Notes under the pieces: model-generated
Databases searched by the model: none
Seen by the model: only the letters and a program-made list of their open reading frames with translations
What the model was told of the DNA's origin: nothing
Position numbers and translations under genes: made by a program
Shown: positions 5,075-53,482 of the stretch, one piece after another
Layout: each line of letters begins with the position of its first letter
Numbering within the stretch: position 1 is the stretch's first letter
Assembly (NCBI GenBank): GCA_043719805.1
Contig: JAYSTI010000001.1
Location: 80,230-144,229 of the forward strand
Direction of reading: 5' to 3'
Length of the DNA: 64,000 nucleotides
Source: Candidatus Lloydbacteria bacterium
GTDB lineage: Bacteria; Patescibacteriota; Minisyncoccia; Phycocordibacterales; UBA6899

Positions 5075-5485
5075 TCAGGAATTGTCCGACACGCTTGCGC
5101 GAAGAATGTACGACCCCACAACACGTCCGTCTGCAGACACGTCGGCAAGGAGACACAGCATGAAACCCGCGGAAAGAGTTTCGTTGATGAGATTCGCCTC
5201 CCGTACGTTTGTGCCAAGTTCGTGCACAATCAGGCCGTGGAGCTCGCTCATGCCCAATCCGCCGTCTTCGAGTGCAAGCTGCATCATCTCCTCACGACTC
5301 CACTCGGCCGAACAGTAGACGCGGGCAAGGAAGCCGACTGATGCATCAGCATAGACCGGTTCGATCACAACGCTACTTCCAGAGAGGAGCTTCCTCTTCA
5401 CGAAAAGCAGCTGCGGACTCGACTCGGTAAACAAGAATGGCTCCCACAATTCGGGGACCGGCGATTCTCTCAGATTCATGTCCAT
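5075..5485 (-). CDS. hypothetical protein (136 aa)
   Basis: ORF with GGAGGATG ribosome-binding site immediately upstream of the ATG; same strand operon context. Confidence 0.5.
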   Translation of the reverse strand: MDMNLRESPVPELWEPFLFTESSPQLLFVKRKLLSGSSVVIEPVYADASVGFLARVYCSAEWSREEMMQLALEDGGLGMSELHGLIVHELGTNVREANLINETLSAGFMLCLLADVSADGRVVGSYILRASVSDNS

Positions 5486-5575
5486 AACATCCTCCGCTGT
5501 TTCAATTACTCTGTCTTTACGTTACAGGATGAGCGCAAAACGTCAAACATATTGCTGGATGCCAAAGCAGGAAAC

Positions 5576-7924
5576 TCAATATGGGGACGAGTCAAGGTCT
5601 TTGACGTCAAACGGCTTGGGTATCACGGTCCCGGCCCCCACAATTTCTTTTCCACGAAAATACGTCTTTGCGTAAACAGGTTTTTCAAAGTCACGATATT
5701 TTATTTGAAATGAAAGCTTTCCATCGGCTTTTCTCTGAAGGGAAAGTATTTCTATATTGGTGTCGTTGTCCGGCGCAGTCACTTCGCCGGTGACATTTCC
5801 GGATAGCTTTTCTGCGATACCGCCTTCGATGCCTGTTGAGCAAGACTCGAAATAGATTGGTGCACCGTCTTCAAGAATGAGTGACGACCTATCCGGCCCG
5901 ACGCCCAAAAATTCCGCGTCGATCTTTCCTTCTGCACCCTCTCCCATTCTAGTAGAATCTTTTTCCCCATGACCACGCACACCAATGAAACTCATTTTTC
6001 TTCCGTTTGTCTCAACGATGTAAAGTAGTCGTTGCGCTGCCTCAATCTGACTTCCCGCCTCAGCAACGCGGAGTTTGATTCCTTGCGCCTTTGCCTCTCG
6101 ATGAAGCTCGTCAATTTTTTCGGTCCCGTTGAATACACCGTTTGTGTCATCGAGTGCCGATATTGCCGTACCGTACTCATCTGCGGCCTCCTTGTTTGTC
6201 GCAAGTTGGTCGAGCAATATTTCTTTGCTGTAACGCCCCGGATGATAAATGCCGTACTTGCCGGTGAGCCTCTCCATGCTACCGGGGTGCCCAGTTTCAA
6301 GGTCAACAATCCTTCGTGTATTCTGTGACATCACCCCGTTGCGCGTACCCTGCCAATCCGGCCTCTTCCATAGCTCAAGATAGCGCTCCGGCGGCAGACC
6401 ATACGACTGGAGCAATGCAGTCGAGACAGTTTCTCCACCCTTCCCCATGGCAAGATAAGTCGGGTCTTCGTATATTTTTTTGTCTAACCCATTCTTACCC
6501 TTCTCCTTATCGTTAAACACCGTTGAGAGTAGCCGCAGATCAAAATTCCCTTCGCGAATTTTCTTTACAAGCAGATCTGTCCCCTCCTTGTGCCCCGATT
6601 GCGCCAAGAATGCGAGAAGCTGGACCTGCTCGAACGAATGCATGTCGTTCCGTGCAAAATTTTGTTGGAGCAGTGGACTGAGACCGGCAAAGACTTCGTT
6701 GGCGATGGAAGGAACCGATGCAAGAAATTTTGCGTCGCCATGTTCATCTGCGAGCAACATGGAGTTGTCGACATGCTCATTATAGAGAGACGCCATGTCC
6801 ATGACTGCCCTCGAATTTCTTGACGCAGATGTGCCGATCACCCCCGCTTGCATATCCGTGTGCATTTCTTCAATTGTGTGATGTGCAATAGTGATGGCTT
6901 TTTTCGCATTTTCAACAAATGCATTTAGCGCATCGGAATTCGTACGCACCAACTCTCCCATCTCCTCACTAAAATCAAAGTTCCGAATTGCATTCAATGC
7001 ATTCATTGATTCGAGAAACTGAGGATCATCCATAATCTGCTTACGCAGTTCTTTGGGATATGTGCCGAGCATCGCTTGTATATCAGCAAATGCTTTGTCG
7101 AGAACCGCACTTTCCACTGCAACCGGAACCTTCTTCGAATTATCGTCACGAGGAGCATAAAATGCGCGATAATCTTTGAGTGTAGCAATAGACTGGCTCG
7201 AGCGATGCTCTTCATGCCAACTCTTCCGAATAACCTCACGTGCCTCGTGTTCTTCGTCCGACTTGCGCGCCTCAGGAGTTTCAATGACATCTTCAACAAT
7301 CATGAACCCCGAAATATCATCGGGTCTTACCTCTTCGCGCGGCGCCGATGTTGCAACAGGTTCATTTTCACGCATGGTTTCCGCAACCGCTTCAGGGGTG
7401 ACGCGCTCTTCCGTCACAAAGGTTGGAGTAGTCTTCACCTCGAGTATTGGTGCCGGAGAGACCATTTCTGCTACCACCTCATCTTGTGTCTTCACTTCGG
7501 GGGCCTCTGCATTCGGAATGTTCCCCGCAACGCCGATAATCGCCGCCGCGGCAACAACATTCACGTCACGCCTCATGCTTCCGCTCGCGCGCGAAAGCAC
7601 TTCGGTAATCCTGTTTTTTGCCTCAGTCGCAATTTCGGATATTTGTCTTCCCACATCACGAACCCTCTCCACAAATCCCATGTCCCCCTCCACGCGAGCG
7701 ACCTCCGCCTCCGTTACGCCAAGAGCTTCCGGAATCGAATCGTGTAGCTTCTCTGCCTCGGCCTCGATAGTCACCACCTGCCCCTCGATTGCAGCGACGG
7801 CAGAGAGAGCGGCCGTTTCCGGGTCTTCCGCTCCGACCTCTCTTCTCTCATCCTCTGCCGTCTCGGGCGACAATACTTCCGATGAGGGGATTATTTCTTC
7901 AGTTTCGTTATGTTTTGGTGGCAT
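5576..7924 (-). CDS. large hypothetical protein (about 782 aa; ORF-track start at 7948 is a TTG)
   Basis: Long uninterrupted ORF, acidic N-terminal region, no TM segments, no recognisable catalytic motif; first ATG at 7924. Confidence 0.7.
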   Translation of the reverse strand: MPPKHNETEEIIPSSEVLSPETAEDERREVGAEDPETAALSAVAAIEGQVVTIEAEAEKLHDSIPEALGVTEAEVARVEGDMGFVERVRDVGRQISEIATEAKNRITEVLSRASGSMRRDVNVVAAAAIIGVAGNIPNAEAPEVKTQDEVVAEMVSPAPILEVKTTPTFVTEERVTPEAVAETMRENEPVATSAPREEVRPDDISGFMIVEDVIETPEARKSDEEHEAREVIRKSWHEEHRSSQSIATLKDYRAFYAPRDDNSKKVPVAVESAVLDKAFADIQAMLGTYPKELRKQIMDDPQFLESMNALNAIRNFDFSEEMGELVRTNSDALNAFVENAKKAITIAHHTIEEMHTDMQAGVIGTSASRNSRAVMDMASLYNEHVDNSMLLADEHGDAKFLASVPSIANEVFAGLSPLLQQNFARNDMHSFEQVQLLAFLAQSGHKEGTDLLVKKIREGNFDLRLLSTVFNDKEKGKNGLDKKIYEDPTYLAMGKGGETVSTALLQSYGLPPERYLELWKRPDWQGTRNGVMSQNTRRIVDLETGHPGSMERLTGKYGIYHPGRYSKEILLDQLATNKEAADEYGTAISALDDTNGVFNGTEKIDELHREAKAQGIKLRVAEAGSQIEAAQRLLYIVETNGRKMSFIGVRGHGEKDSTRMGEGAEGKIDAEFLGVGPDRSSLILEDGAPIYFESCSTGIEGGIAEKLSGNVTGEVTAPDNDTNIEILSLQRKADGKLSFQIKYRDFEKPVYAKTYFRGKEIVGAGTVIPKPFDVKDLDSSPY

Positions 7925-8099: not shown

Positions 8100-8127
8100 G
8101 GTACAAAAATGCACTCTCTGTTGCAAA

Positions 8128-8158
8128 CAAAAAACGAGCGGTGTTGCTCGTTTTTTTT
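8128..8158. terminator. bidirectional intrinsic terminator downstream of rpsP
   Basis: acgagcg-gtgt-tgctcgt hairpin flanked by A6 and T8. Confidence 0.5.
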
Positions 8159-8175
8159 GTTTATTGTTTTTAGGT

Positions 8176-8577
8176 CTACGCGGCAGGAGTCTCTGTTGCA
8201 ACAGCGGGCTCTTCGGCCTTTGCCTCTGCAGCCGGGGCTTCAACTTTTGCGACTACGGGAGCCGCCTTCTTTGGCTCCTCCTTTGGAACCTCTTTCACGA
8301 CGGGTGTCTTCGAGTTAAGGGCGTTGACCTTCTTTCCCGGAATAATCTTCGCATCAACCAAGAGGTTGTGTACGGTGTCGGATGGCTGTGCGCCCTGACC
8401 GATCCAGTACTTCACACGCTCTCCGTCAATCTGAGGAGTTCCCTTTCGTGCATCATAAAATCCGACAAATTCTGCCACACCCCTGGTCTTCTTTGGAGAA
8501 CGACGATGATCCTGCACGATGATGCGGAATGATGGGTCGTTTTTGCGTCCAACGCGCTTAAGTCGTATAGCTAACAT
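8176..8577 (-). CDS. rpsP: 30S ribosomal protein S16 with Lys/Ala/Pro/Glu-rich C-terminal extension
   Basis: MLAIRLKRVGRKNDPSFRIIVQDHRRSPKKTRGVAEFVGFYDARKG matches the S16 N-terminus; ORF-track entry 8176..8835 begins upstream in what is likely untranslated sequence; real ATG at 8577. Confidence 0.85.
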   Translation of the reverse strand: MLAIRLKRVGRKNDPSFRIIVQDHRRSPKKTRGVAEFVGFYDARKGTPQIDGERVKYWIGQGAQPSDTVHNLLVDAKIIPGKKVNALNSKTPVVKEVPKEEPKKAAPVVAKVEAPAAEAKAEEPAVATETPAA

Positions 8578-44960: not shown

Positions 44961-45015
44961 ATGGTTAGCAAACTCTGCTAACGCAACTATTTTTATCAGA
45001 AATTCATTCTTTTGG

Positions 45016-45390
45016 CTACATCGAACGGCTACTATTCTCGCGCTCCACGTCCCGCTCCTTATGTTCCGCAATTTGTTTCAAGAAAAATGATGACGCACGA
45101 CCCTTTTCTGATTGAATGCGGCCATAAACACGACTGATGAAAAGGTCTTGCCCACGCTTGACCATTACGAGTCCGGCACTGAGTGAGCGTTGTCCATGTG
45201 GCTTTGCTGCATCAAGTAATTTGTAAAAATCACGATGAAGTGTCGTGATCTCTCTTGAGACCACGTCACCTAATCGGATCTGACTTTGTTCGTTGACGTT
45301 TTCTTGTCTCCCCGCATTCTTGCGTGCATAGACAACAATGCAGAGGAGCGTGAGCGCTGAAACTATCCAAATAATGAGGAGCGTCGACAT
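45016..45390 (-). CDS. membrane-anchored hypothetical protein (124 aa)
   Basis: N-terminal TM helix LLIIWIVSALTLLCIVVY; starts 9 nt after the tsf stop. Confidence 0.5.
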   Translation of the reverse strand: MSTLLIIWIVSALTLLCIVVYARKNAGRQENVNEQSQIRLGDVVSREITTLHRDFYKLLDAAKPHGQRSLSAGLVMVKRGQDLFISRVYGRIQSEKGRASSFFLKQIAEHKERDVERENSSRSM

Positions 45391-45399
45391 GGATTTTTA

Positions 45400-45987
45400 C
45401 TACTTTCCAACAGCAAATCGCTCAAAGCGCACAATCTCCGTATTCTCTCCAAATTTCTGTACTGCTGTTTTGATGAGGTCTCCTATAGTGACTTCGCCGT
45501 TTTTGACGAAAGGCTGGTCAACAAGAACCATTTCCTTGAAGTACACCTCGAGCTTTCCTGCAAGTGCTTTCTCTTTGATTGCCTCCGGCTTTCCCGCCAT
45601 CGTCTTTGCAACCTCTTCGGCGAAGAAGGCTTTTGCCTTTTCCTTGTCCGCCTCGGTGATGCCTGCCTGAGTCAAAAATTTTGGACGCATTGCCGCAACA
45701 TGCATTGCGATGTCATAGGCAAGCTTCTTGAAATCTTCATTCTTTGCAACGAAGTCTGTTTCGCAACCAAGCTCCACCATTGCGCCCACTGAGCCGTTTC
45801 CGTGTATATAAGCCGCAACAACCCCTGAGGCCAGCGCACGCTCACTCTTTTTGGCGGCAAGCTCCCCGCTCTTCTTGCGGAGCGCCATGCGTGCCTTCTC
45901 CATATCTCCACCGGTCTCTTCAAGCGCCTTCTTGCATTGCATGACCGCAACACCGGTCTCATCTCGTAATGCCTTGATCTGTTCCAT
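45400..45987 (-). CDS. tsf: elongation factor Ts (alternative start at 46011)
   Basis: MEQIKALRDETGVAVMQCKKAL aligns with the EF-Ts N-terminus; downstream of rpsB. Confidence 0.85.
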   Translation of the reverse strand: MEQIKALRDETGVAVMQCKKALEETGGDMEKARMALRKKSGELAAKKSERALASGVVAAYIHGNGSVGAMVELGCETDFVAKNEDFKKLAYDIAMHVAAMRPKFLTQAGITEADKEKAKAFFAEEVAKTMAGKPEAIKEKALAGKLEVYFKEMVLVDQPFVKNGEVTIGDLIKTAVQKFGENTEIVRFERFAVGK

Positions 45988-46165
45988 TCCAATTTCCATA
46001 TGTTTTTTCAATTAATGAACAAAAAATAAGTTGACGGAAGGCTTTCAAATTCAGACGAAGTTCGAGGCGTCGAGACCTCTGTGTCCGAGAGGACATAGTC
46101 TGCCTATGTTCTCCGGACCGGAGGTCGATGACAACGACGAAATTCGCTGAATTTGGGAGCCGTAA

Positions 46166-46861
46166 CTAGACGATGCGAGCCTTCTTGCCCGCTTCGTATG
46201 CTGCGGAAAGTTCCGCCATGAAATACTTCACAGAAAGAAGTGCTGAATCATTGGCAAGAATCGGGTACGTAATCTTTGATGCATCGCAGTCAGAATTGAG
46301 GAGAGCAATCGTCTCTACCTTCATCTTGTTGGCCTCCTTCACGGCAATATGCTCTTCGCGAGGGTCAACGATGATGATGGCACCCGGTGCACCCTCAAGT
46401 GAGGCGATTCCACCGAACTCCGTCTGAAGCCTGCCCATCTCGCGCTCAAACAAAAGTTTTTCCATCTTGGTATATTTGTCGAGCTCTCCCTTTGAAAACA
46501 TATCGGACAATTCCTTCAAGCGTCCAGTACGCTTCTTGATTTCGTTCCAGTTTGTAAGCATTCCGCCGACCCAACGCTCGGTGACGTAAGGCATGTTGAG
46601 AGACTTTGCAGCATCTTCAACGATTCCTTTTATCTCCTGCTTTGTCCCGACGAAAAGGACGTTCTTCCCAAGTTTTCCAAGTTCCATGACGCGTGCCTTC
46701 GCGACATCGAGCAACTTTGCAGTCTCGGTTAGGTCAATAATATCAACTCCGTTCTTTGACCCAAACAAGTAGGGTTTGACGGAGGCATGACGACGCGCTC
46801 GGGAATATCCGAAGTGTGCGCCGACATTAAACATTGCTTCTATTGCGGTATTTTCTGTCAT
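46166..46861 (-). CDS. rpsB: 30S ribosomal protein S2
   Basis: FNVGAHFGYSRARRHASVKPYLFG and VLFVGTKQ motifs. Confidence 0.9.
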   Translation of the reverse strand: MTENTAIEAMFNVGAHFGYSRARRHASVKPYLFGSKNGVDIIDLTETAKLLDVAKARVMELGKLGKNVLFVGTKQEIKGIVEDAAKSLNMPYVTERWVGGMLTNWNEIKKRTGRLKELSDMFSKGELDKYTKMEKLLFEREMGRLQTEFGGIASLEGAPGAIIIVDPREEHIAVKEANKMKVETIALLNSDCDASKITYPILANDSALLSVKYFMAELSAAYEAGKKARIV

Positions 46862-46989
46862 ATTGCTATGTCGCAAAACTATTAATAAGTGGGGTCATGC
46901 TATCAAAATTAGTCCATTTTCGCAAGCAAAACTCGACAAGCGCGGAAAGTTATTGTAGCGTAACAAAAGACTTCGGAAGGTGAGGGCGT

Positions 46990-47496
46990 ATGCCTAAAAT
47001 AACATATGAATTTGTCTCCTTCATCCATCACGTCTGGATGTTCCTCTTCATGTACGGATGGCTACTCATCCACGCAAAAGCTCGCTATGGCATCATGTAT
47101 GCAGGTGTTCTTCTCTCAACCATTGCAGCATGGAAAATCTGGAATAACACATGCCCAATAACCATTCTTGAGGACGCGCTCAAATACACAGGTGACGGTG
47201 AGCAGATTCCGAGCATTCTTCTTGAGCGCTGGGACCTCACCGGTGCATTTTGCTTCGCACTTCTACTCGCGGTGTCATTCATAGCTTCGGCATATAAATG
47301 GTGGGGAAAATTACCAAGCGGATCATCTGCTCATTACTTTCGAACAAATTCGCTCGGGCTGGTCGGGGTGATTGCCGTACTCTCTCTCACTCTCCGAGAA
47401 TTCGGCAATGCATTACTTCTCGCAAACATTGCTGTCGGTTGCATTGTCGCGATAGTCGGACTGGGGCTTAATTTCGGACGAAAACAAGTGTGCTAA
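46990..47496 (+). CDS. polytopic membrane protein (168 aa)
   Basis: Four or five hydrophobic helices. Confidence 0.55.
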   Translation: MPKITYEFVSFIHHVWMFLFMYGWLLIHAKARYGIMYAGVLLSTIAAWKIWNNTCPITILEDALKYTGDGEQIPSILLERWDLTGAFCFALLLAVSFIASAYKWWGKLPSGSSAHYFRTNSLGLVGVIAVLSLTLREFGNALLLANIAVGCIVAIVGLGLNFGRKQVC

Positions 47497-47540
47497 ACCA
47501 CGGTGTGGACTCTCATGTCCGCACTGTTTTATTTTTTACT

Positions 47541-47650
47541 ACTCATCACCCCCCTCCTCCCCGCTTCCCATCTCCCCGCTTGTCGCGCGCTCTGCTATTG
47601 TTTCGAGCATTTCATTGACGTCTCCAGCGAAGATGGCGTCGATGTTGGTG
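47541..47650 (-). pseudogene. displaced, degenerate copy of the prfA 3' end (last about 35 codons)
   Basis: About 85% nucleotide identity to 48895..49005; translates to [35 protein letters not shown], versus real RF1 [35 protein letters not shown]. Confidence 0.6.
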
Positions 47651-47881
47651 GCTGAAAAAAACGAACGCCAATCTTTTTGAGCGAGAGCGGTACATCATTT
47701 CGGAGTGCCACAAGGGTACTTCTTGCTTTTCTAATTCGCTCTGCTCATAAGAAAACAATGTCGCTCCACAGACGAATTGCTTGGTTCGACAGTCTTGCTG
47801 GCAAAATTCGTCGAGGACCGCCTGCTCGCCCCGCAGGAGGGCGAGCGGGTTGCTCCGAAATGATATACAGCACGAGCGAAA

Positions 47882-48142
47882 CTATTCGTACAACTCTGAG
47901 TGTGTCCCCAATGCAAACAAAAGCACGGCTTCGTCGTCCACCATCCTATATACGACACGCAGGTCGCCACTGACATTCAGGCTACGATAATTTGCATACT
48001 CGCCGTGAAGTTTGTGGTTTTGAAGCTGCGGATGATACGACTCCTCCACAAAAAGAAGTAGGCGCGCATCCACTTGTGTCTGTGTTTTTTGTGAAAGCTT
48101 TTTGTATTGCTTCCGAAACTGCGGAGAATAAACAAAGTGCAT
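47882..48142 (-). CDS. type II toxin, YafQ/RelE-family mRNA interferase
   Basis: 86 aa; C-terminal LRVVYRMVDDEAVLLFALGTHSELY typical of YafQ/RelE; starts 3 nt after the antitoxin stop. Confidence 0.75.
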   Translation of the reverse strand: MHFVYSPQFRKQYKKLSQKTQTQVDARLLLFVEESYHPQLQNHKLHGEYANYRSLNVSGDLRVVYRMVDDEAVLLFALGTHSELYE

Positions 48143-48145
48143 TGT

Positions 48146-48418
48146 TTATTTCTTAAGGTCGGTGAGCATTGCATCCATGGACTTGAATTCCTTGGAGAAC
48201 TTCCCTGCTTCGTGATCCTGCTCGGCGAGTAAAAGCACATCGCGTAAATAGGCAGAGGGTTTATATGATGCGGAAATGGTGATAGATCGCTCACGCACAA
48301 ATTGACGCAAAAATGCATTCACAACCGTGCCAAGTGAAAGCCCCAGCTCTTCTGCTGTTTCTTTTGCAGACTGCTTCAACGAGACATCTGTTTTGACCGA
48401 CAGGAGTGTTTTAGACAT
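48146..48418 (-). CDS. type II antitoxin, DinJ/RelB family (ribbon-helix-helix, 90 aa)
   Basis: MSKTLLSVKTDVSLKQSAKETAEELGLSLGTVVNAFLRQFV resembles DinJ; the longer ORF-track entry 48146..48829 is an artefact. Confidence 0.75.
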   Translation of the reverse strand: MSKTLLSVKTDVSLKQSAKETAEELGLSLGTVVNAFLRQFVRERSITISASYKPSAYLRDVLLLAEQDHEAGKFSKEFKSMDAMLTDLKK

Positions 48419-48453
48419 ATACCAAAGTATATACTTTGGTAATTCTCTGTCAA
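48419..48453 (-). promoter_or_regulatory. toxin-antitoxin promoter TTGACA-N16-TATACT with a perfect 20-bp palindromic operator
   Basis: ACCAAAGTATATACTTTGGT (48421..48440) overlaps the -10 and abuts the start codon. Confidence 0.6.
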
Positions 48454-48556
48454 TCTCCGCACCACAGCCCTCACTGTTGACAGAACATAATAAATTTGAT
48501 ATAATGTATCGGTATTTCGTAGAGTCCTTTTCGCAAACAAGTCTGGAGCCTACCCT

Positions 48557-48820
48557 ATGAAACTGTGGAATTTTTTGGCCCAAAATGGCCTGCAAGTCCT
48601 GCTTGGTGGCGACCCTGATCTGGGATACGTTGCCACCATCGCCCCGTTCGACGGCAAGTTGCACAGTGCCGCAACAACCGCCGAAGTCCACCCTCATGCC
48701 TCTGGGCTCACTCCGCGCAAGGTGCTCATGGACCTCGCCAAGCAACTCGAGCGTTGCAAGGTGGTCCGCACAACCGCGCCCAAAAAGACGGTAACGGCCA
48801 ACACGCTCTCTGTCGACTGA
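48557..48820 (+). CDS. hypothetical small protein (87 aa) on the islet
   Basis: Followed by a + strand specific terminator. Confidence 0.45.
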   Translation: MKLWNFLAQNGLQVLLGGDPDLGYVATIAPFDGKLHSAATTAEVHPHASGLTPRKVLMDLAKQLERCKVVRTTAPKKTVTANTLSVD

Positions 48821-48838
48821 GCAGTCCAACAGAGGGCA

Positions 48839-48873
48839 CCGAACCGCTAGCTTGCTAGCGGTTTCATTTTTTG
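48839..48873 (+). terminator. intrinsic terminator
   Basis: gaaccgctagc-ttg-ctagcggtttc plus T6. Confidence 0.55.
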
Positions 48874-48892
48874 TGTTTCCCGCAAAAGGCCT

Positions 48893-49882
48893 TTAGTCAT
48901 CATCCCCCGCTTCTGCGCTTCCCATCTCCCCGCTTGTTGCGCGCTCACTAATTGTTTCGAGCATTGCACTGATGTCACCACCAAAGATGCCGTCGATGTT
49001 GTGCCAGGATTCTTTGATGCGGTGGTCGGTCACGCGGTTTTGCGGGACGTTGTAGGTGCGAATTTTTTCTGAACGATCGCCCGACCCGATTACGGAGCGT
49101 GCGTCGGCATTCTTCTTCAACTCCTCTTCGTCGTTCAATTGCTCAAGTTTTGCCGCGAGGATAGACATCGCCTTCTCGCGATTCTTGAGCTGTGAGCGCT
49201 CCACCGAGCAGTGCACGTGGATGTTTGTCGGTTTGTGGACCAAGTGTACAGCAGTCTCCACTTTGTTCACGTTCTGTCCGCCTGCGCCGCCTGAGCGGGT
49301 GTAGGACATTTCAAGATCGGATTGATTGATGACCACCTTCGCCTTCTTTCGGATGGGGAGCACGATGACAGATGCGGTCGATGTGTGAATACGGCCTGAC
49401 TTTTCTGTCGCAGGAATACGCTGAATGCGATGCACGCCGGTCTCCCACTTCATCATGTCAAATACTCCGTTACCGGTTACCTCAAATGTTGCTTCTTTGT
49501 ATCCCCCCATTTCGCTCTCCGACTCATCAACGACCTTCCATCCCCAACCTTTTGATTCCACAAAGCGCTGATACATGAGCGCCAAGTCTTGTGCAAATAT
49601 TGCCGCCTCCTCCCCGCCCACGCCGGCGCGCACCTCAAGAATAACTTCGCGCGGTTTTTCTTCAGCAACAACATCCTCTTTCAGAATGTATTCCATCTTC
49701 GTGACCAAGTCTTTCATGCTTGCTTCGTGTGTCGCAATATCTTCTTTTGCCATTGCATCCATTTCGGGATCTACGCCAAGTAAAGCTTTGGCGCTTTCCA
49801 ATTCAGCAGAAAACCGCTCGTATTCATCCACGAGATATTTCGTTTTGTAATTTTCTTTGAATTTTGTCAAATCGGGTTCCAT
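48893..49882 (-). CDS. prfA: peptide chain release factor 1
   Basis: PAT tripeptide ([14 protein letters not shown]) and GGQ motif ([10 protein letters not shown]). Confidence 0.9.
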
Positions 49883-49959
49883 GAATTATCAGTATAACGT
49901 AAATAAATTTTACAGCGAAAAACCCGCACGACGAATTGTGTGCGGGCTCTCCAAGATAG

Positions 49960-50223
49960 CTATTTCTTTTCTTTTTTTGGCTTTGCGGATGCGGCTCGTG
50001 TCTTGAAGCGCTCGACGCGTCCTGCCATGTCCATTGCCTTTTCCTTTCCGGTGAAGAGCGGATGGCACTGCGAGCAGATTTCCATGTCGATTTTCTCCAT
50101 CGTGGAACCGACTGTCATTTCTGCGCCACATGCGCATGTCGCTTTTGCAGTCGGAAAATACTTGAGGTTAAACTCAACTTTCTTCTCCGGCTTCTTGTCT
50201 CTTTTTACTTGTGCTGTTGCCAT
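49960..50223 (-). CDS. rpmE: 50S ribosomal protein L31 with 14-aa N-terminal extension
   Basis: C-terminal 75 aa match L31 (CxC...CxxC, HPLFTGK); ORF-track entry 49960..50493 starts far upstream in likely non-coding sequence. Confidence 0.85.
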   Translation of the reverse strand: MATAQVKRDKKPEKKVEFNLKYFPTAKATCACGAEMTVGSTMEKIDMEICSQCHPLFTGKEKAMDMAGRVERFKTRAASAKPKKEKK

Positions 50224-50231
50224 AGGGCTAC

Positions 50232-50260
50232 ACTCTATCAAACAGCCCCAAATTTGGCAA
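50232..50260 (-). promoter_or_regulatory. candidate rpmE promoter TTGCCA-N17-TAGAGT containing TTGCCAAATTTGGGGC, possibly leaderless
   Basis: 16-nt motif identical to that at 33224..33242; -10 ends 8 nt before the rpmE ATG. Confidence 0.4.
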
Positions 50261-50289
50261 GAATGAAAGAATGAATGCGAAATCCACAT

Positions 50290-50314
50290 AGAAAAACCCC
50301 TCACGAGGAGGGGT
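50290..50314 (-). terminator. intrinsic terminator
   Basis: cccctc-acgag-gagggg with T5 in minus orientation. Confidence 0.55.
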
Positions 50315-50323
50315 TCGGAATCG

Positions 50324-50857
50324 TCACTGCAGTGACCGGGAGACAGGCTCGGCAAAATAGAGCGTGCACGCATCGTGAATCTTTGCACGATCTGCCTGAC
50401 TGAAAACGTGAGCGATGAAATCGAGAGCATTTGGCCACCCTCTCTCAATAACGAGCAGTGAGCTTTTGTGACCGATGAGCGGTGCGAGCACACTCATGCG
50501 CTCCGCATCGTTATCCCAATAGGTCATCACATTCGCGGCATCAAAACACCCCTTGAACACAGCCGGCGACGGCGGCTGACAGACAGCCATCAATCCCATC
50601 GCACCACAGACGAGGTCAGATGCTCGTGGCACCGCCCCGGCTTCAAGTGTCCGCTCAAGCTTTATAAGAAAAGGTTCTTCGCCGTAAGTAACCACGATGC
50701 CGAGCTTTCCATCATCGTTGATCCAAACAAGTCCCACCTCCCGACCGCCGACCGCAAAAACAAGAATCGGTGTGCAGTTTACCGTGATGTCTTGACTCAC
50801 ATTCGTACTCCCAAGTAACATCTCACTCCACCCTATCAAAGTACGACGAGAATGCAA
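50324..50857 (-). CDS. hypothetical protein (177 aa; alternative start at 50821)
   Basis: Long ORF, same strand as neighbours, terminator downstream. Confidence 0.55.
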   Translation of the reverse strand: MHSRRTLIGWSEMLLGSTNVSQDITVNCTPILVFAVGGREVGLVWINDDGKLGIVVTYGEEPFLIKLERTLEAGAVPRASDLVCGAMGLMAVCQPPSPAVFKGCFDAANVMTYWDNDAERMSVLAPLIGHKSSLLVIERGWPNALDFIAHVFSQADRAKIHDACTLYFAEPVSRSLQ

Positions 50858-50957
50858 TTCGCCGATGATGAGCGCGTCCGAGAGGACTTACTCATGTAAG
50901 TTTTCCGGACCGCCTGGCGAAGTCAGCGCAAAAGTGCGTCAATTTTACGAATTCAGC

Positions 50958-51062
50958 CTAAATTCCTGATTTTGGATGAAATACGAAGTGCTGGAGATTG
51001 GCGGTGTGACGCAGGCGTACTCATAGTACGACCGCTAACCCGCGCAATTGAAGCACGAGTAG
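50958..51062. repeat. perfect 18-bp inverted repeat (CTAAATTCCTGATTTTGG / CCAAAATCAGGAATTTAG) enclosing 69 nt with internal hairpins
   Basis: Direct reading of both arms; not followed by a T-run; lies between two minus-strand genes. Confidence 0.4.
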
Positions 51063-51072
51063 CTCGCCAAAA

Positions 51073-52485
51073 TCAGGAATTTAGAGGGTCGATCATGGTG
51101 GTCTGGATAGACTTTGCCTTGGTCATAACTTGCGTCCCATAAGTAGCCGCCCAACTCGATGCACTACACTTACTCCCCGAAAAATATCGGCACGCTGCGT
51201 CGCGCTCCGCACTATATGAACTAGGCTTTGCCCCAAGGTCGGTAAGATACATTCCTGCAGCCATAAATGCGTCACGCGCACTCCACGGGTCCGCAGCGTC
51301 AGTACCCAACGCCTTCATTATCCGTTTTTCAAACATCACCCACGTTGAAGGAATGAATTGCGCCGCCCCCATTGCGCCGCCCCAACCCACCTCCTGCGGA
51401 CACGATACGCGCGTATCGTACGGATCCTTGCCAAGCGCTGCGGTTATCAACAAAAACGGTGGAACATCACGAGTAGGGTTCATCACTTTTTGTTTTGCAT
51501 TACCACTTTTTGCAGAAACACCTGCTCCCGTCGCGCGATTCTTCAAGATGCACGAACCCTGATTTGCGCCGAAGCTAGACTCCTGCATAAAGACCGCAAG
51601 CAGAAATGCGGGACGAATGCCGGTCTTCCCGGAAACGGCAACCGCATAGTCGTATGCTTTTCCAAATGAGATCTCACCGGAATCGCGAAGCGCAAAAAGT
51701 GCGGTGCGAATTTCTGCTGCTCGTTTTTTGCGGTCCGCAAGAACTTTTGAATATTCTGCCTCCTTGTTCTTGGTAATTTTTAGTAAACGGTTTTTTTCCG
51801 CCTCATTTGACTGCACAATGCTCTTACTGCGCTCAAGACCCGCCTTGGCGTCCATTTCCTGCTGTTGTTTTGTTTCCAGTGCTTCTTGCGCTGATTCGTT
51901 TTCAGCTTTCGCGCTTCTTAATGCATCAGCTGAATTCTTGAGACCTGCACGAATAGAATCAAATGAATCAAGGTCAATAAAAAAACTCGAAAGATCTTCT
52001 TTCGACAAAAGCATTTCGGGTAACGATGCTTGGTCGAGCTCGTTTGTCTTTCGTATCAATTGCGCCAGTGACTGCTTCTCGCGGTCGATGCGCAACACAA
52101 GATTTCTTACGGTTCTCGATTTCTCCATTATTCCGACACCAAGTTGCGCGACGAGCACACCCTGTCTCTTGATGAGCACATTCAGGCGGTCGGTATTTGC
52201 CTTTAGAAGCTTAATGTCACCGGTCAAACTCGTCCCCTCAGTCTTCAGTCCGCCGATGGTGTTGGTTAGGCCGGCAATTTCCTGATTGACGCCATCAAGC
52301 TCATTTTGCAGTTGGGACTCCTTGTCGGCGCTCGCAACCGACATCCCCGTCTGCGCGATCGCCACATGATACGCGGGAAAAAATATTGAGAAAATCGCAC
52401 AGAGGAGTAGTGCAAAACAAGCCAATTGTTTTTTCTGCAAACCACGTACTCTCGATAAGGTGCGCATCATGTAGTTGGAGCACAT
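51073..52485 (-). CDS. secreted coiled-coil protein with C-terminal lytic transglycosylase-like domain
   Basis: Signal peptide; about 250-aa coiled coil; catalytic-type motifs QESSFG and GAMGAAQFIPSTW. Confidence 0.75.
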   Translation of the reverse strand: MCSNYMMRTLSRVRGLQKKQLACFALLLCAIFSIFFPAYHVAIAQTGMSVASADKESQLQNELDGVNQEIAGLTNTIGGLKTEGTSLTGDIKLLKANTDRLNVLIKRQGVLVAQLGVGIMEKSRTVRNLVLRIDREKQSLAQLIRKTNELDQASLPEMLLSKEDLSSFFIDLDSFDSIRAGLKNSADALRSAKAENESAQEALETKQQQEMDAKAGLERSKSIVQSNEAEKNRLLKITKNKEAEYSKVLADRKKRAAEIRTALFALRDSGEISFGKAYDYAVAVSGKTGIRPAFLLAVFMQESSFGANQGSCILKNRATGAGVSAKSGNAKQKVMNPTRDVPPFLLITAALGKDPYDTRVSCPQEVGWGGAMGAAQFIPSTWVMFEKRIMKALGTDAADPWSARDAFMAAGMYLTDLGAKPSSYSAERDAACRYFSGSKCSASSWAATYGTQVMTKAKSIQTTMIDPLNS

Positions 52486-53216: not shown

Positions 53217-53482
53217 AATCGAAAAATTATTGTAAAACCTACGTAAATAGCGAACTTCTTTGTTGTGAGACCCCAGACACTCGGTCAACATATGGGAATA
53301 TGCCTTCATCGTGTCCCTCCCAACGCCGCGAATTTCATCTATTTACCCATGTTTTACACTGGTTAATATGCCGCATAGCATAGCAAATACTGGACTTTAT
53401 GCAGTATTGACAATACTAGCACGTCATGCTACAATTCAAAGCAGACAACAACACTGCGCGCCCGACGGCGGAAGGAGCTCCC

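Follow-up and report, generated by a model that had tools for sequence, protein, structure and literature searches.

Why should a bacterium with a complete release factor gene carry, on the same strand and a little over a kilobase away, a second copy of the last codons of that gene, and how did a toxin-antitoxin (TA) pair come to lie between the two? The question is raised by the region between prfA and rpsB in a contig of Candidatus Lloydbacteria (JAYSTI010000001.1), a member of the candidate phyla radiation (CPR, or Patescibacteria), of which a stretch of 64,000 nt was analysed (referred to as the window). In an earlier note, the arrangement had been read as the scar of a site-specific integrative element that targeted the 3' end of prfA, supplied the gene with a replacement end and later lost its integrase, leaving a decayed islet stabilised by the TA pair. 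In the interpretation preferred here, which we hold with about even confidence, illegitimate recombination anchored by homology joined two alternative versions of the prfA-rpsB slot, in the manner of 3'-end displacement at Rhs and type VI secretion system (T6SS) loci.

A repeat scan of window positions 45000-52000 revealed a single long repeat. It is direct and ungapped, 108 nt in length and 83% identical between 47540-47647 and 48894-49001 (self-BLAST, E=3e-27), and its copies are spaced by 1354 nt. The second copy is the working tail of prfA, the translation of which, read directly, includes the P-A-T motif of RF1-type release factors. The first, designated copy A, lies on the minus strand and represents the last 35 codons and the stop codon of prfA, with the reading frame kept and the stop in register. 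Homology to prfA ends abruptly on both sides of copy A, at the H294/N295 codon boundary and at the stop codon; there is no in-frame start codon upstream, and the residues encoded upstream are unrelated to PrfA. Hence the duplicated prfA end of about 35 codons around cargo, as described in the earlier note, was confirmed by alignment of the copies, and the similarity is not confined to low-complexity sequence, each copy encoding 35 amino acids that are not of low complexity. Copy A is a non-functional relic, and the working prfA gene has a complete end.

The history of the two copies was assessed by comparison with prfA of related loci (given L numbers). PrfA of the window is 93-94% identical to the proteins of L003, L046, L047 and L048, which were retrieved via a 90% protein cluster; the closest reference genome in the collection shows 93% PrfA identity. 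Copy A is identical to the prfA tail of its own genome at 89/108 positions and to the tails of relatives at 77-80/108. It differs from the working tail at 2, 8 and 9 sites in codon positions 1, 2 and 3, respectively, and orthologue pairs differ mainly at third codon positions (3, 2 and 17 differences between the window and L003 in the tail segment, and 19, 11 and 141 in the whole gene). When the 19 differences between the copies were polarised against L003, L046, L047 and L048, 11 were specific to the relic (seven at positions 1 and 2 and four at position 3, near the neutral ratio of 2:1), six were specific to the working tail (one at positions 1 and 2 and five at position 3), and two were ties. 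With both tails under selection, about two differences would be expected at positions 1 and 2, and 10 were observed (Poisson P=8e-5). If the copies started out identical and only copy A evolved neutrally thereafter, the distance predicted at these positions is d=0.163-0.167, as compared with 0.154 observed. The third-position distance dates the event to about 0.48 of the divergence between the window and L003.

These values fit a common origin of both copies in this lineage, with neutral decay of copy A and continued selection on the working tail. Since the polarised differences and the distances trace both copies to this lineage, the working tail is not a diverged foreign replacement. Origin of the relic in another lineage, suggested by some amino acids that match L006 and L024, was ruled out by the nucleotide distances and the polarised differences. 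One codon differs at all three positions, being Ser (AGT) in the working tail and Ala (GCA) in the relic, and the state in the relic is the allele of L046 and L047. This gives a hint, and no more, that the tails are alleles of two strains rather than the products of copying within one genome.

The gene order rpmE-prfA-rpsB-tsf is conserved across 22 related genomes. The gap between prfA and rpsB is empty in some of them, measuring 92 nt in L047 and 100-150 nt in L007, L010, L013 and more distant genomes, and is occupied by unrelated, mostly orphan cargo in L003, L005, L006, L008, L009, L022, L024, L046 and L048. The cargo consists of an S-adenosylmethionine methyltransferase in L005, a DUF218 protein and an orphan in L024, and various orphans in L006, L008, L009 and L022. 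L048 has a 235-aa orphan, the start of which overlaps the prfA stop. In L046, a flanking sequence precedes the cargo, and in L003, L043, L044 and L045 the same flank includes an inserted repeat element and is followed by an orphan of 208-230 aa. Thus, the window and its four relatives at 93-94% PrfA identity represent five slot states, and about ten are found across the wider clade. In Candidatus Lloydbacteria, the slot for cargo between prfA and rpsB is hypervariable. An empty site with prfA directly beside the membrane-protein gene, which the earlier note had expected, was not found; the empty site consists of prfA, 92-150 nt and rpsB (L047, L007, L010 and L013). No recombinase was detected in the islet, in 30 further open reading frames (ORFs) of the window or in 10 cargo ORFs from the slots of relatives, and the profile search of the islet ORFs agrees with the statement in the note that no integrase remains. 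In two loci, the first cargo gene begins on the prfA stop or 2 nt past it (TAATG in L048, 1373-1377; TAATCATG in L005, 6430-6437), which suggests that new genes are inserted flush to the prfA end and are probably co-transcribed.

No repeats of the prfA tail were found in more than 25 relatives, when each slot was compared with its own prfA by self-BLAST and by a degenerate core scan, and only the window and L024 gave matches. L024 includes an independent copy, 33-35 nt long, of prfA codons 287-297 (CATCGCATCAAAGAGTAATGGCACTATTTTAC, positions 361-392), which is located directly past its own prfA stop and before the DUF218 gene. The 3' edge of this fragment and the 5' edge of copy A fall at nearly the same point (within about 6-10 nt), and the arrangement is different. 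The fragment is attL-like and lies downstream of an intact prfA, as is predicted by neither simple nor tandem integration, and no model tried explains it.

The DNA between the two copies in the window is composite. Next to the relic, a flank at 47662-47679 aligns to CTCGCT-CAAGAGGGGYGRYGTTTG, which follows prfA in L046 and follows a structured repeat, here termed SE, in L003. In L046, where SE is missing, the sequence reads GATACC-CTCG-CTCAAGAGGGG (also GATACC-CTCG-CTCAAGAG), and the filled site of L003 reads CTCG-(SE)-CTCG-CTCAAGAGGGG (-CTCAAGAG). The SE copies of the window and of L037 have the same target and the same right flank as that of L003, the flank in the window being CTCGCTCAAAAAGATTGGCGTTCG. 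L003 carries SE and the flank without the TA pair and without the prfA duplication. Because it is orthologous to the sequence past prfA in L003 and L046, segment 47662-47880 is the old chromosomal context of prfA and not the cargo of an element. A single islet stabilised by the TA pair is not consistent with this interior, in which a GC-rich ORF (ORF87, 62% GC) is combined with a TA pair that occurs in other contexts and with a dispersed repeat in its ancestral flank.

There is a single novel junction, at 47647/47648, which reads CAGCCAC/CAACATCGA (the slash marks the point of joining). On the right-hand side, the relic tail meets cargo directly at its stop codon, as do the live prfA tails in L005, L024 and L048, and to the left of 47662 is the same SE and flank as after prfA in L003 and L046. 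An orphan prfA 3' fragment has therefore been kept together with its former downstream gene, as the relic tail abuts the terminator of the gene for Memb168, a membrane protein encoded between rpsB and copy A. Fusion of two slot versions was favoured because only this junction needs explaining. The anatomy, the variability of the slot, the separate histories of the parts and the decay pattern are shown by the data, and the mechanism and direction of the recombination are inferred, with either version as the possible resident. Version 1 would have included prfA, ORF87, the RelB/YafQ pair, SE and the ancestral flank, and version 2 would have included prfA, of which no more than the final 108 nt are left, the Memb168 gene and rpsB. 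The incoming DNA would derive from a conspecific or very closely related cell with the other slot version. One of its ends would be anchored by homology in a flanking core gene (prfA/rpmE or rpsB/tsf), and the other would be joined illegitimately, linking the sequence about 30 nt beyond SE to prfA codon 295; a circularised fragment that entered by a single, Campbell-type crossover would yield the same product. In either case the old prfA tail and the downstream gene would be pushed aside and not deleted, and the displaced tail would then drift neutrally. Homology-facilitated illegitimate recombination that displaces 3' ends together with downstream genes has been proposed for T6SS effector-immunity and Rhs loci (PMC5361080), and competence genes are reported to be prevalent in Patescibacteria at the level of the phylum (PMC12455944).

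The likeness to Rhs, contact-dependent inhibition and T6SS loci lies in an incoming module anchored in a conserved upstream gene, displacement of the resident tail with its downstream gene, an orphan 3' fragment that remains, a hotspot with many versions and no involvement of an integrase (PMC5361080). The present locus differs in that the anchor is an essential translation factor and not a polymorphic toxin, the relic has neither a function nor an immunity partner, only one displacement layer is seen, and the mechanism is deduced from one junction. Several observations weigh against a fusion of slot versions. Neither parental version was found, i.e. there is no prfA-Memb168-rpsB arrangement and no prfA-ORF87-TA-SE arrangement that leads into other cargo (the L037 locus, 1 kb, is without ORF87), and homologues of Memb168 and ORF87 could not serve as tracers of the parental versions, both being orphans. 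Microhomology at the junction is only 3-5 nt (CAC, or GCCAC against GGCAC) and is not diagnostic. The last highly conserved block of prfA ends about 10 nt from the breakpoint, a position at which a random illegitimate break would fall only about 2% of the time, and the edge of the 33-nt prfA fragment in L024 is nearly at the same point, a recurrence predicted by a targeted mechanism. In addition, an imported tract would be expected to appear as a step in the divergence from L003, and the per-gene identities of 73-84% show no clear discontinuity.

A direct repeat of a gene 3' end around cargo, with the gene intact, is the classic signature of site-specific integration. Under this explanation, an element with an attP site mimicking the prfA tail would have integrated near codon 294/295, providing prfA with a new tail and displacing the native one downstream, and the integrase and most of the cargo would have been lost later from a remnant stabilised by the TA pair. 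Genomic islands, integrative and conjugative elements (ICEs) and integrative and mobilizable elements that restore the ends of housekeeping genes include SXT/R391 in prfC and streptococcal ICEs in the 3' ends of fda, rpsI and rplL. The window shares with them the gene-end direct repeat that flanks foreign DNA, the intact gene and the TA pair inside. The breakpoint is at the edge of the most conserved prfA 3' block (GAYCAYCGYATYAARGARTCNTGGCAYAAYATYGA, near-invariant in more than 20 loci), a kind of target that integrases favour, the fragment in L024 has a nearly coincident edge, and copies that were possibly identical at integration fit the decay data equally well. However, neither recombinase nor mobility genes accompany the repeat, and no recombinase was found in the islet, in 30 ORFs of the window or in about 10 alternative cargo sets at the slot, which are themselves without such repeats. 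The supposed element would have to include SE and the flank, which are orthologous to the chromosome after prfA in L003 and L046, where the repeat is absent, and L037 has prfA, the TA pair and SE with no prfA copy in the next 170 nt. The cargo is heterogeneous in composition and history, the polarity of the L024 fragment is not that expected after integration, and the 108-nt block of identity exceeds most att cores and is unusually long for a gene-end repeat. This origin is thus considered unlikely, though it deserves to be kept in view. Judged as an island, the locus lacks two defining features that were looked for, a recombinase and an interior that is foreign throughout, and 3'-end displacement fits better. 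Of the scar described in the earlier note, the duplicated end bracketing cargo stands, close relatives do have sites without this cargo, and a site-specific element that lost its integrase is not supported. The coincidence with L024 would be explained by a targeted recombinase, and it might also be explained by recombination between diverged genomes that ended at the last conserved block. A further explanation, which appears very doubtful, is that the slot is a dedicated cassette-capture site, at which a recombination system encoded elsewhere or acting on SE-type repeats would repeatedly insert promoter-bearing cassettes at the conserved prfA block TGGCAC/AAYATYGA, the relic and the L024 fragment being two scars of one targeted reaction.

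A short tandem duplication of the prfA tail within the genome, by replication slippage, template switching or unequal sister-chromatid exchange, followed by insertion of ORF87, the TA pair and SE, would agree with the derivation of both copies from one lineage sequence and with their equal third-position branches (4 and 5 changes), and the post-stop fragment in L024 resembles a short local duplication. An 11/12 match just past each stop (AAAAAATGAAAC and AAAAAATAAAAC) might belong to the duplicated unit, but a match of A-runs is expected anyway before convergent terminators. Every later insertion would nevertheless have had to land exactly between the copies, SE with its flank is older context and not a later insertion, and the Ser/Ala codon, in which all three positions differ, has the state of another allele. 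Tandem duplication is therefore regarded as quite improbable. A misjoin by the metagenome assembler of two strain versions of the slot was also considered, since the sequence comes from a metagenome-assembled genome and co-occurring strains have different slots. It is barely credible because contigs from two separately assembled runs (SRR22198343 and SRR23617209, independent Logan assemblies of 10-18 kb that cover the whole region) are 100% identical to the window. Moreover, exact matches between the copies extend to 21 nt at most, with only 11 nt by the junction, which is too short for a false join, and the relic shows decay and is not a second live allele. Fusion of two slot versions remains the preferred explanation, and the parts that it would have brought together are listed in Table 1.

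Table 1. Features of the prfA-rpsB region in window coordinates, in order of position.
Feature	Coordinates	Strand	Basis
rpsB (ribosomal protein S2), conserved right-hand border of the slot	46166..46876	-	tblastn in all relatives; Pfam Ribosomal_S2 annotation of L001, an identical locus
rpsB promoter and leader region, conserved beside rpsB in relatives	46877..46989	-	blastn
Memb168, 168-aa orphan membrane protein, convergent with prfA	46990..47496	+	ORF; sub-threshold DUF2784 match
Intrinsic terminator of the Memb168 gene, abutting the relic stop codon	47500..47537	+	11-bp stem, then TTTATTTTTT (terminator scan)
Copy A, prfA relic (N295 to stop), now part of no gene	47539..47647	-	repeat, frame
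Novel junction between ancestral flank and prfA relic, TTTTTTTCAGCCAC in prfA orientation	47648..47661	-	homology ends
Ancestral chromosomal flank of the SE insertion site, CAAAAAGATTGGCGTTCG	47662..47679	-	alignment to L046/L003
SE, structured repeat resembling miniature inverted-repeat transposable elements (MITE-like)	47680..47880	-	covariance model
YafQ/RelE-type toxin gene, 86 aa	47882..48142	-	Pfam YafQ_toxin
RelB/DinJ-type antitoxin gene, 90 aa	48146..48418	-	Pfam RelB, borderline
TA promoter TTGACA-N16-TATACT (48453-48426) and overlapping palindrome	48420..48453	-	promoter scan
ORF87 consensus promoter TTGACA-N17-TATAAT, divergent from the TA promoter	48477..48505	+	scan score 12/12
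ORF87, GC-rich orphan, convergent with prfA	48557..48820	+	ORF
Intrinsic terminator of ORF87 (stem 48841-48864, then T-run)	48841..48874	+	10-bp stem, then CATTTTTTGT
prfA (RF1, 329 aa); working tail 48893-49001 is the other repeat copy	48893..49882	-	Pfam PCRF and RF-1

SE was recognised as an element common to the window and L037, where it is found immediately after the toxin stop. It is strongly structured (z=-3.0 in the window and z=-7.8 in L037), and the two copies differ by 11 compensatory pairs. A covariance model derived from them detected two further copies in the 13 kb of L003 (E=4e-9 and 4e-8), one 3 nt past the prfA stop and the other upstream of rpmE. The four copies are thus located at 47680-47880 (minus strand) in the window, 760-905 in L037, and 6994-7148 (plus strand) and 5344-5497 (minus strand) in L003; among other loci, only weak matches were obtained, in L018 and L030. 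Measuring about 150 nt and bordered by GCTCG...CTCGCT, SE has an outer stem of 16-20 bp that covaries and two inner hairpins, and it carries the hairpin loop yCyGCG and the motif GACCAAGC/GACCAAGCC. The copy in the window has an extra insertion of about 54 nt. In the four-copy alignment, both sides change in 19/37 pairs, and 93% of cells are paired as compared with 47-60% when the partners are slid, though the alignment was fitted to the model and these counts lean towards structure. G-U pairs favour the prfA-sense strand, a bias that points to selection on an RNA or on a single-strand fold.

No Rfam family corresponds to SE. A known RNA family between the toxin and the relic was ruled out by an Rfam scan of this interval at E up to 10, which returned two matches at chance level, and an integron attC site was rejected on inspection by eye, as there is no RYYYAAC/GTTRRRY box at the base of the stem. 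Because one and the same site is empty in L046 and filled in L003, SE is interpreted as a mobile MITE-like repeat with a CTCG target repeat. It resembles bacterial MITEs and structured repeats such as Correia/NEMIS, ERIC, RUP and REP-like elements in its length of about 150 nt, long terminal inverted complementarity, several copies per genome, presence or absence between close relatives and a short direct repeat (CTCG) at the insertion site. It differs from them in an outer stem that covaries between copies in place of a fixed inverted repeat, in the strand-biased G-U pairs and in having neither a known Rfam family nor a partner transposase, none having been identified. As far as Rfam and a literature search show, SE is an undescribed family of structured repeats.

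Another family of intergenic repeats, about 110 nt in length (...GAAAATGGATGAAATTCGCGGCG...GTTGACCGAG...CGCAACAAAGAAGTTCGCCGTTT), was observed at 53242-53344 (minus strand) in the window and at 8113-8215 (plus strand) and 5877-5969 (minus strand) in L003. It is situated upstream of rplY in the window, and in L003 upstream of rpsB and, inverted, in the rpmE-prfA spacer.

The DinJ/YafQ-type pair, the 87-aa ORF and its own terminator that the earlier note had placed between the copies were all recovered, by Pfam matches and a terminator scan. The toxin matches YafQ_toxin (PF15738) with 50 bits (cut-off 30, E=3.7e-13). The antitoxin scores 22.3 bits against RelB (PF04221), just below the cut-off of 22.4, and has homologues that are 63-88% identical, the one at 88% being named RelB/DinJ antitoxin by JGI. 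The antitoxin gene comes first, and its stop codon is separated by 3 nt from the ATG of the toxin gene. The promoter predicted in the note was found as described, and the operator palindrome, given there as a perfect 20-bp sequence, is indeed perfect but is a 22-mer, at 48420-48441, which directly precedes the antitoxin ATG and overlaps the promoter. The palindrome is kept in L037, L034, L025, L038 and L039. As the -10 box ends 7 nt ahead of the antitoxin ATG and no Shine-Dalgarno sequence is present, the antitoxin mRNA is probably leaderless or near-leaderless.

TA cassettes at different loci are homologous from the -35 box to the toxin stop, about 570 nt, which makes the unit very compact. 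In L037, a separate metagenome contig of only 1 kb, the pair directly follows prfA, with 80% nucleotide identity to the window over 583 nt and 85% amino acid identity between the toxins. Third-position divergence between the window and L037 is 46% for the TA pair and 64% for the prfA tail (33 codons), a sample too small to decide between horizontal and vertical descent. Related cassettes occur elsewhere in the genome of the L004 organism (L034) and beside a LexA-like/PemK pair (L035/L036). Another is located between rpsG and fusA in a different CPR lineage (L040, 6001-6544; L041, 4794-5337; L042, 372-915), with an antitoxin that is 63% identical and an operator palindrome that is a variant of that in the window. 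The RelB/YafQ family accordingly recurs in spacers of translation-gene operons of CPR genomes (prfA-rpsB and rpsG-fusA).

It is proposed that the TA pair was acquired on its own, as a compact cassette that entered the 6 nt separating the prfA stop from SE, and that it need not have caused the duplication. At the junction so formed, the end of the toxin gene (...TACGAATAG) and the end of prfA in L003 and L046 (...GACGAATAA) share 7 nt of microhomology. Judged from its sequence, the pair is an ordinary RelB/DinJ-YafQ module of type II, with the antitoxin-first order, a YafQ family toxin by Pfam and a palindromic operator over the promoter. What sets it apart from other such modules is the compactness, the probably leaderless mRNA and the recurrence in translation-operon spacers of CPR genomes. 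A 17-nt motif, ACGCGGTTCGAATATCG, is present upstream of the TA pair in L038 (399-415) and downstream of it in L039 (638-654); it might mark a cassette boundary or represent another small repeat, and as a boundary it was rejected, being absent from the window.

ORF87 has a GC content of 62%, as compared with about 48% nearby, and its composition is foreign. Only ORF87 itself was retrieved from 5.8 billion clustered proteins and, by exhaustive HMMER search, from 1.84 billion representatives, and the locus in L037 lacks it. The perfect promoter and strong terminator, in the absence of any homologue among these representatives, would suit a foreign or very young gene, or else a transcript that is not translated.

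Memb168 likewise has no homologue but itself in the 5.8 billion clustered proteins, and none of the related loci encodes it; it is itself lineage-specific cargo. On the far side of its gene, positions 46877-46930 match the sequence upstream of rpsB in L003, L005, L006, L007, L008 and L024 (blastn), and the leader motif cttgcgaaaatgg...ttattaatag is also found in empty slots.

The genomes of CPR bacteria are tiny and streamlined, and how genes are gained in them is poorly understood; this locus provides a concrete and datable example. A single gap between two essential translation genes turns over even among strains with 93-94% identical PrfA, and a relic of 108 nt has persisted over roughly half of the period that separates this lineage from the nearest species sampled. 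The SE repeat family, the compact RelB/YafQ cassette and the slot itself, as a marker of recombination at strain level, can be followed across CPR genomes. Nothing in these results overturns current ideas, and they fit the models of recombination-driven hotspots developed for other bacteria. The locus adds an example from a phylum that has been little studied to processes of known kinds.

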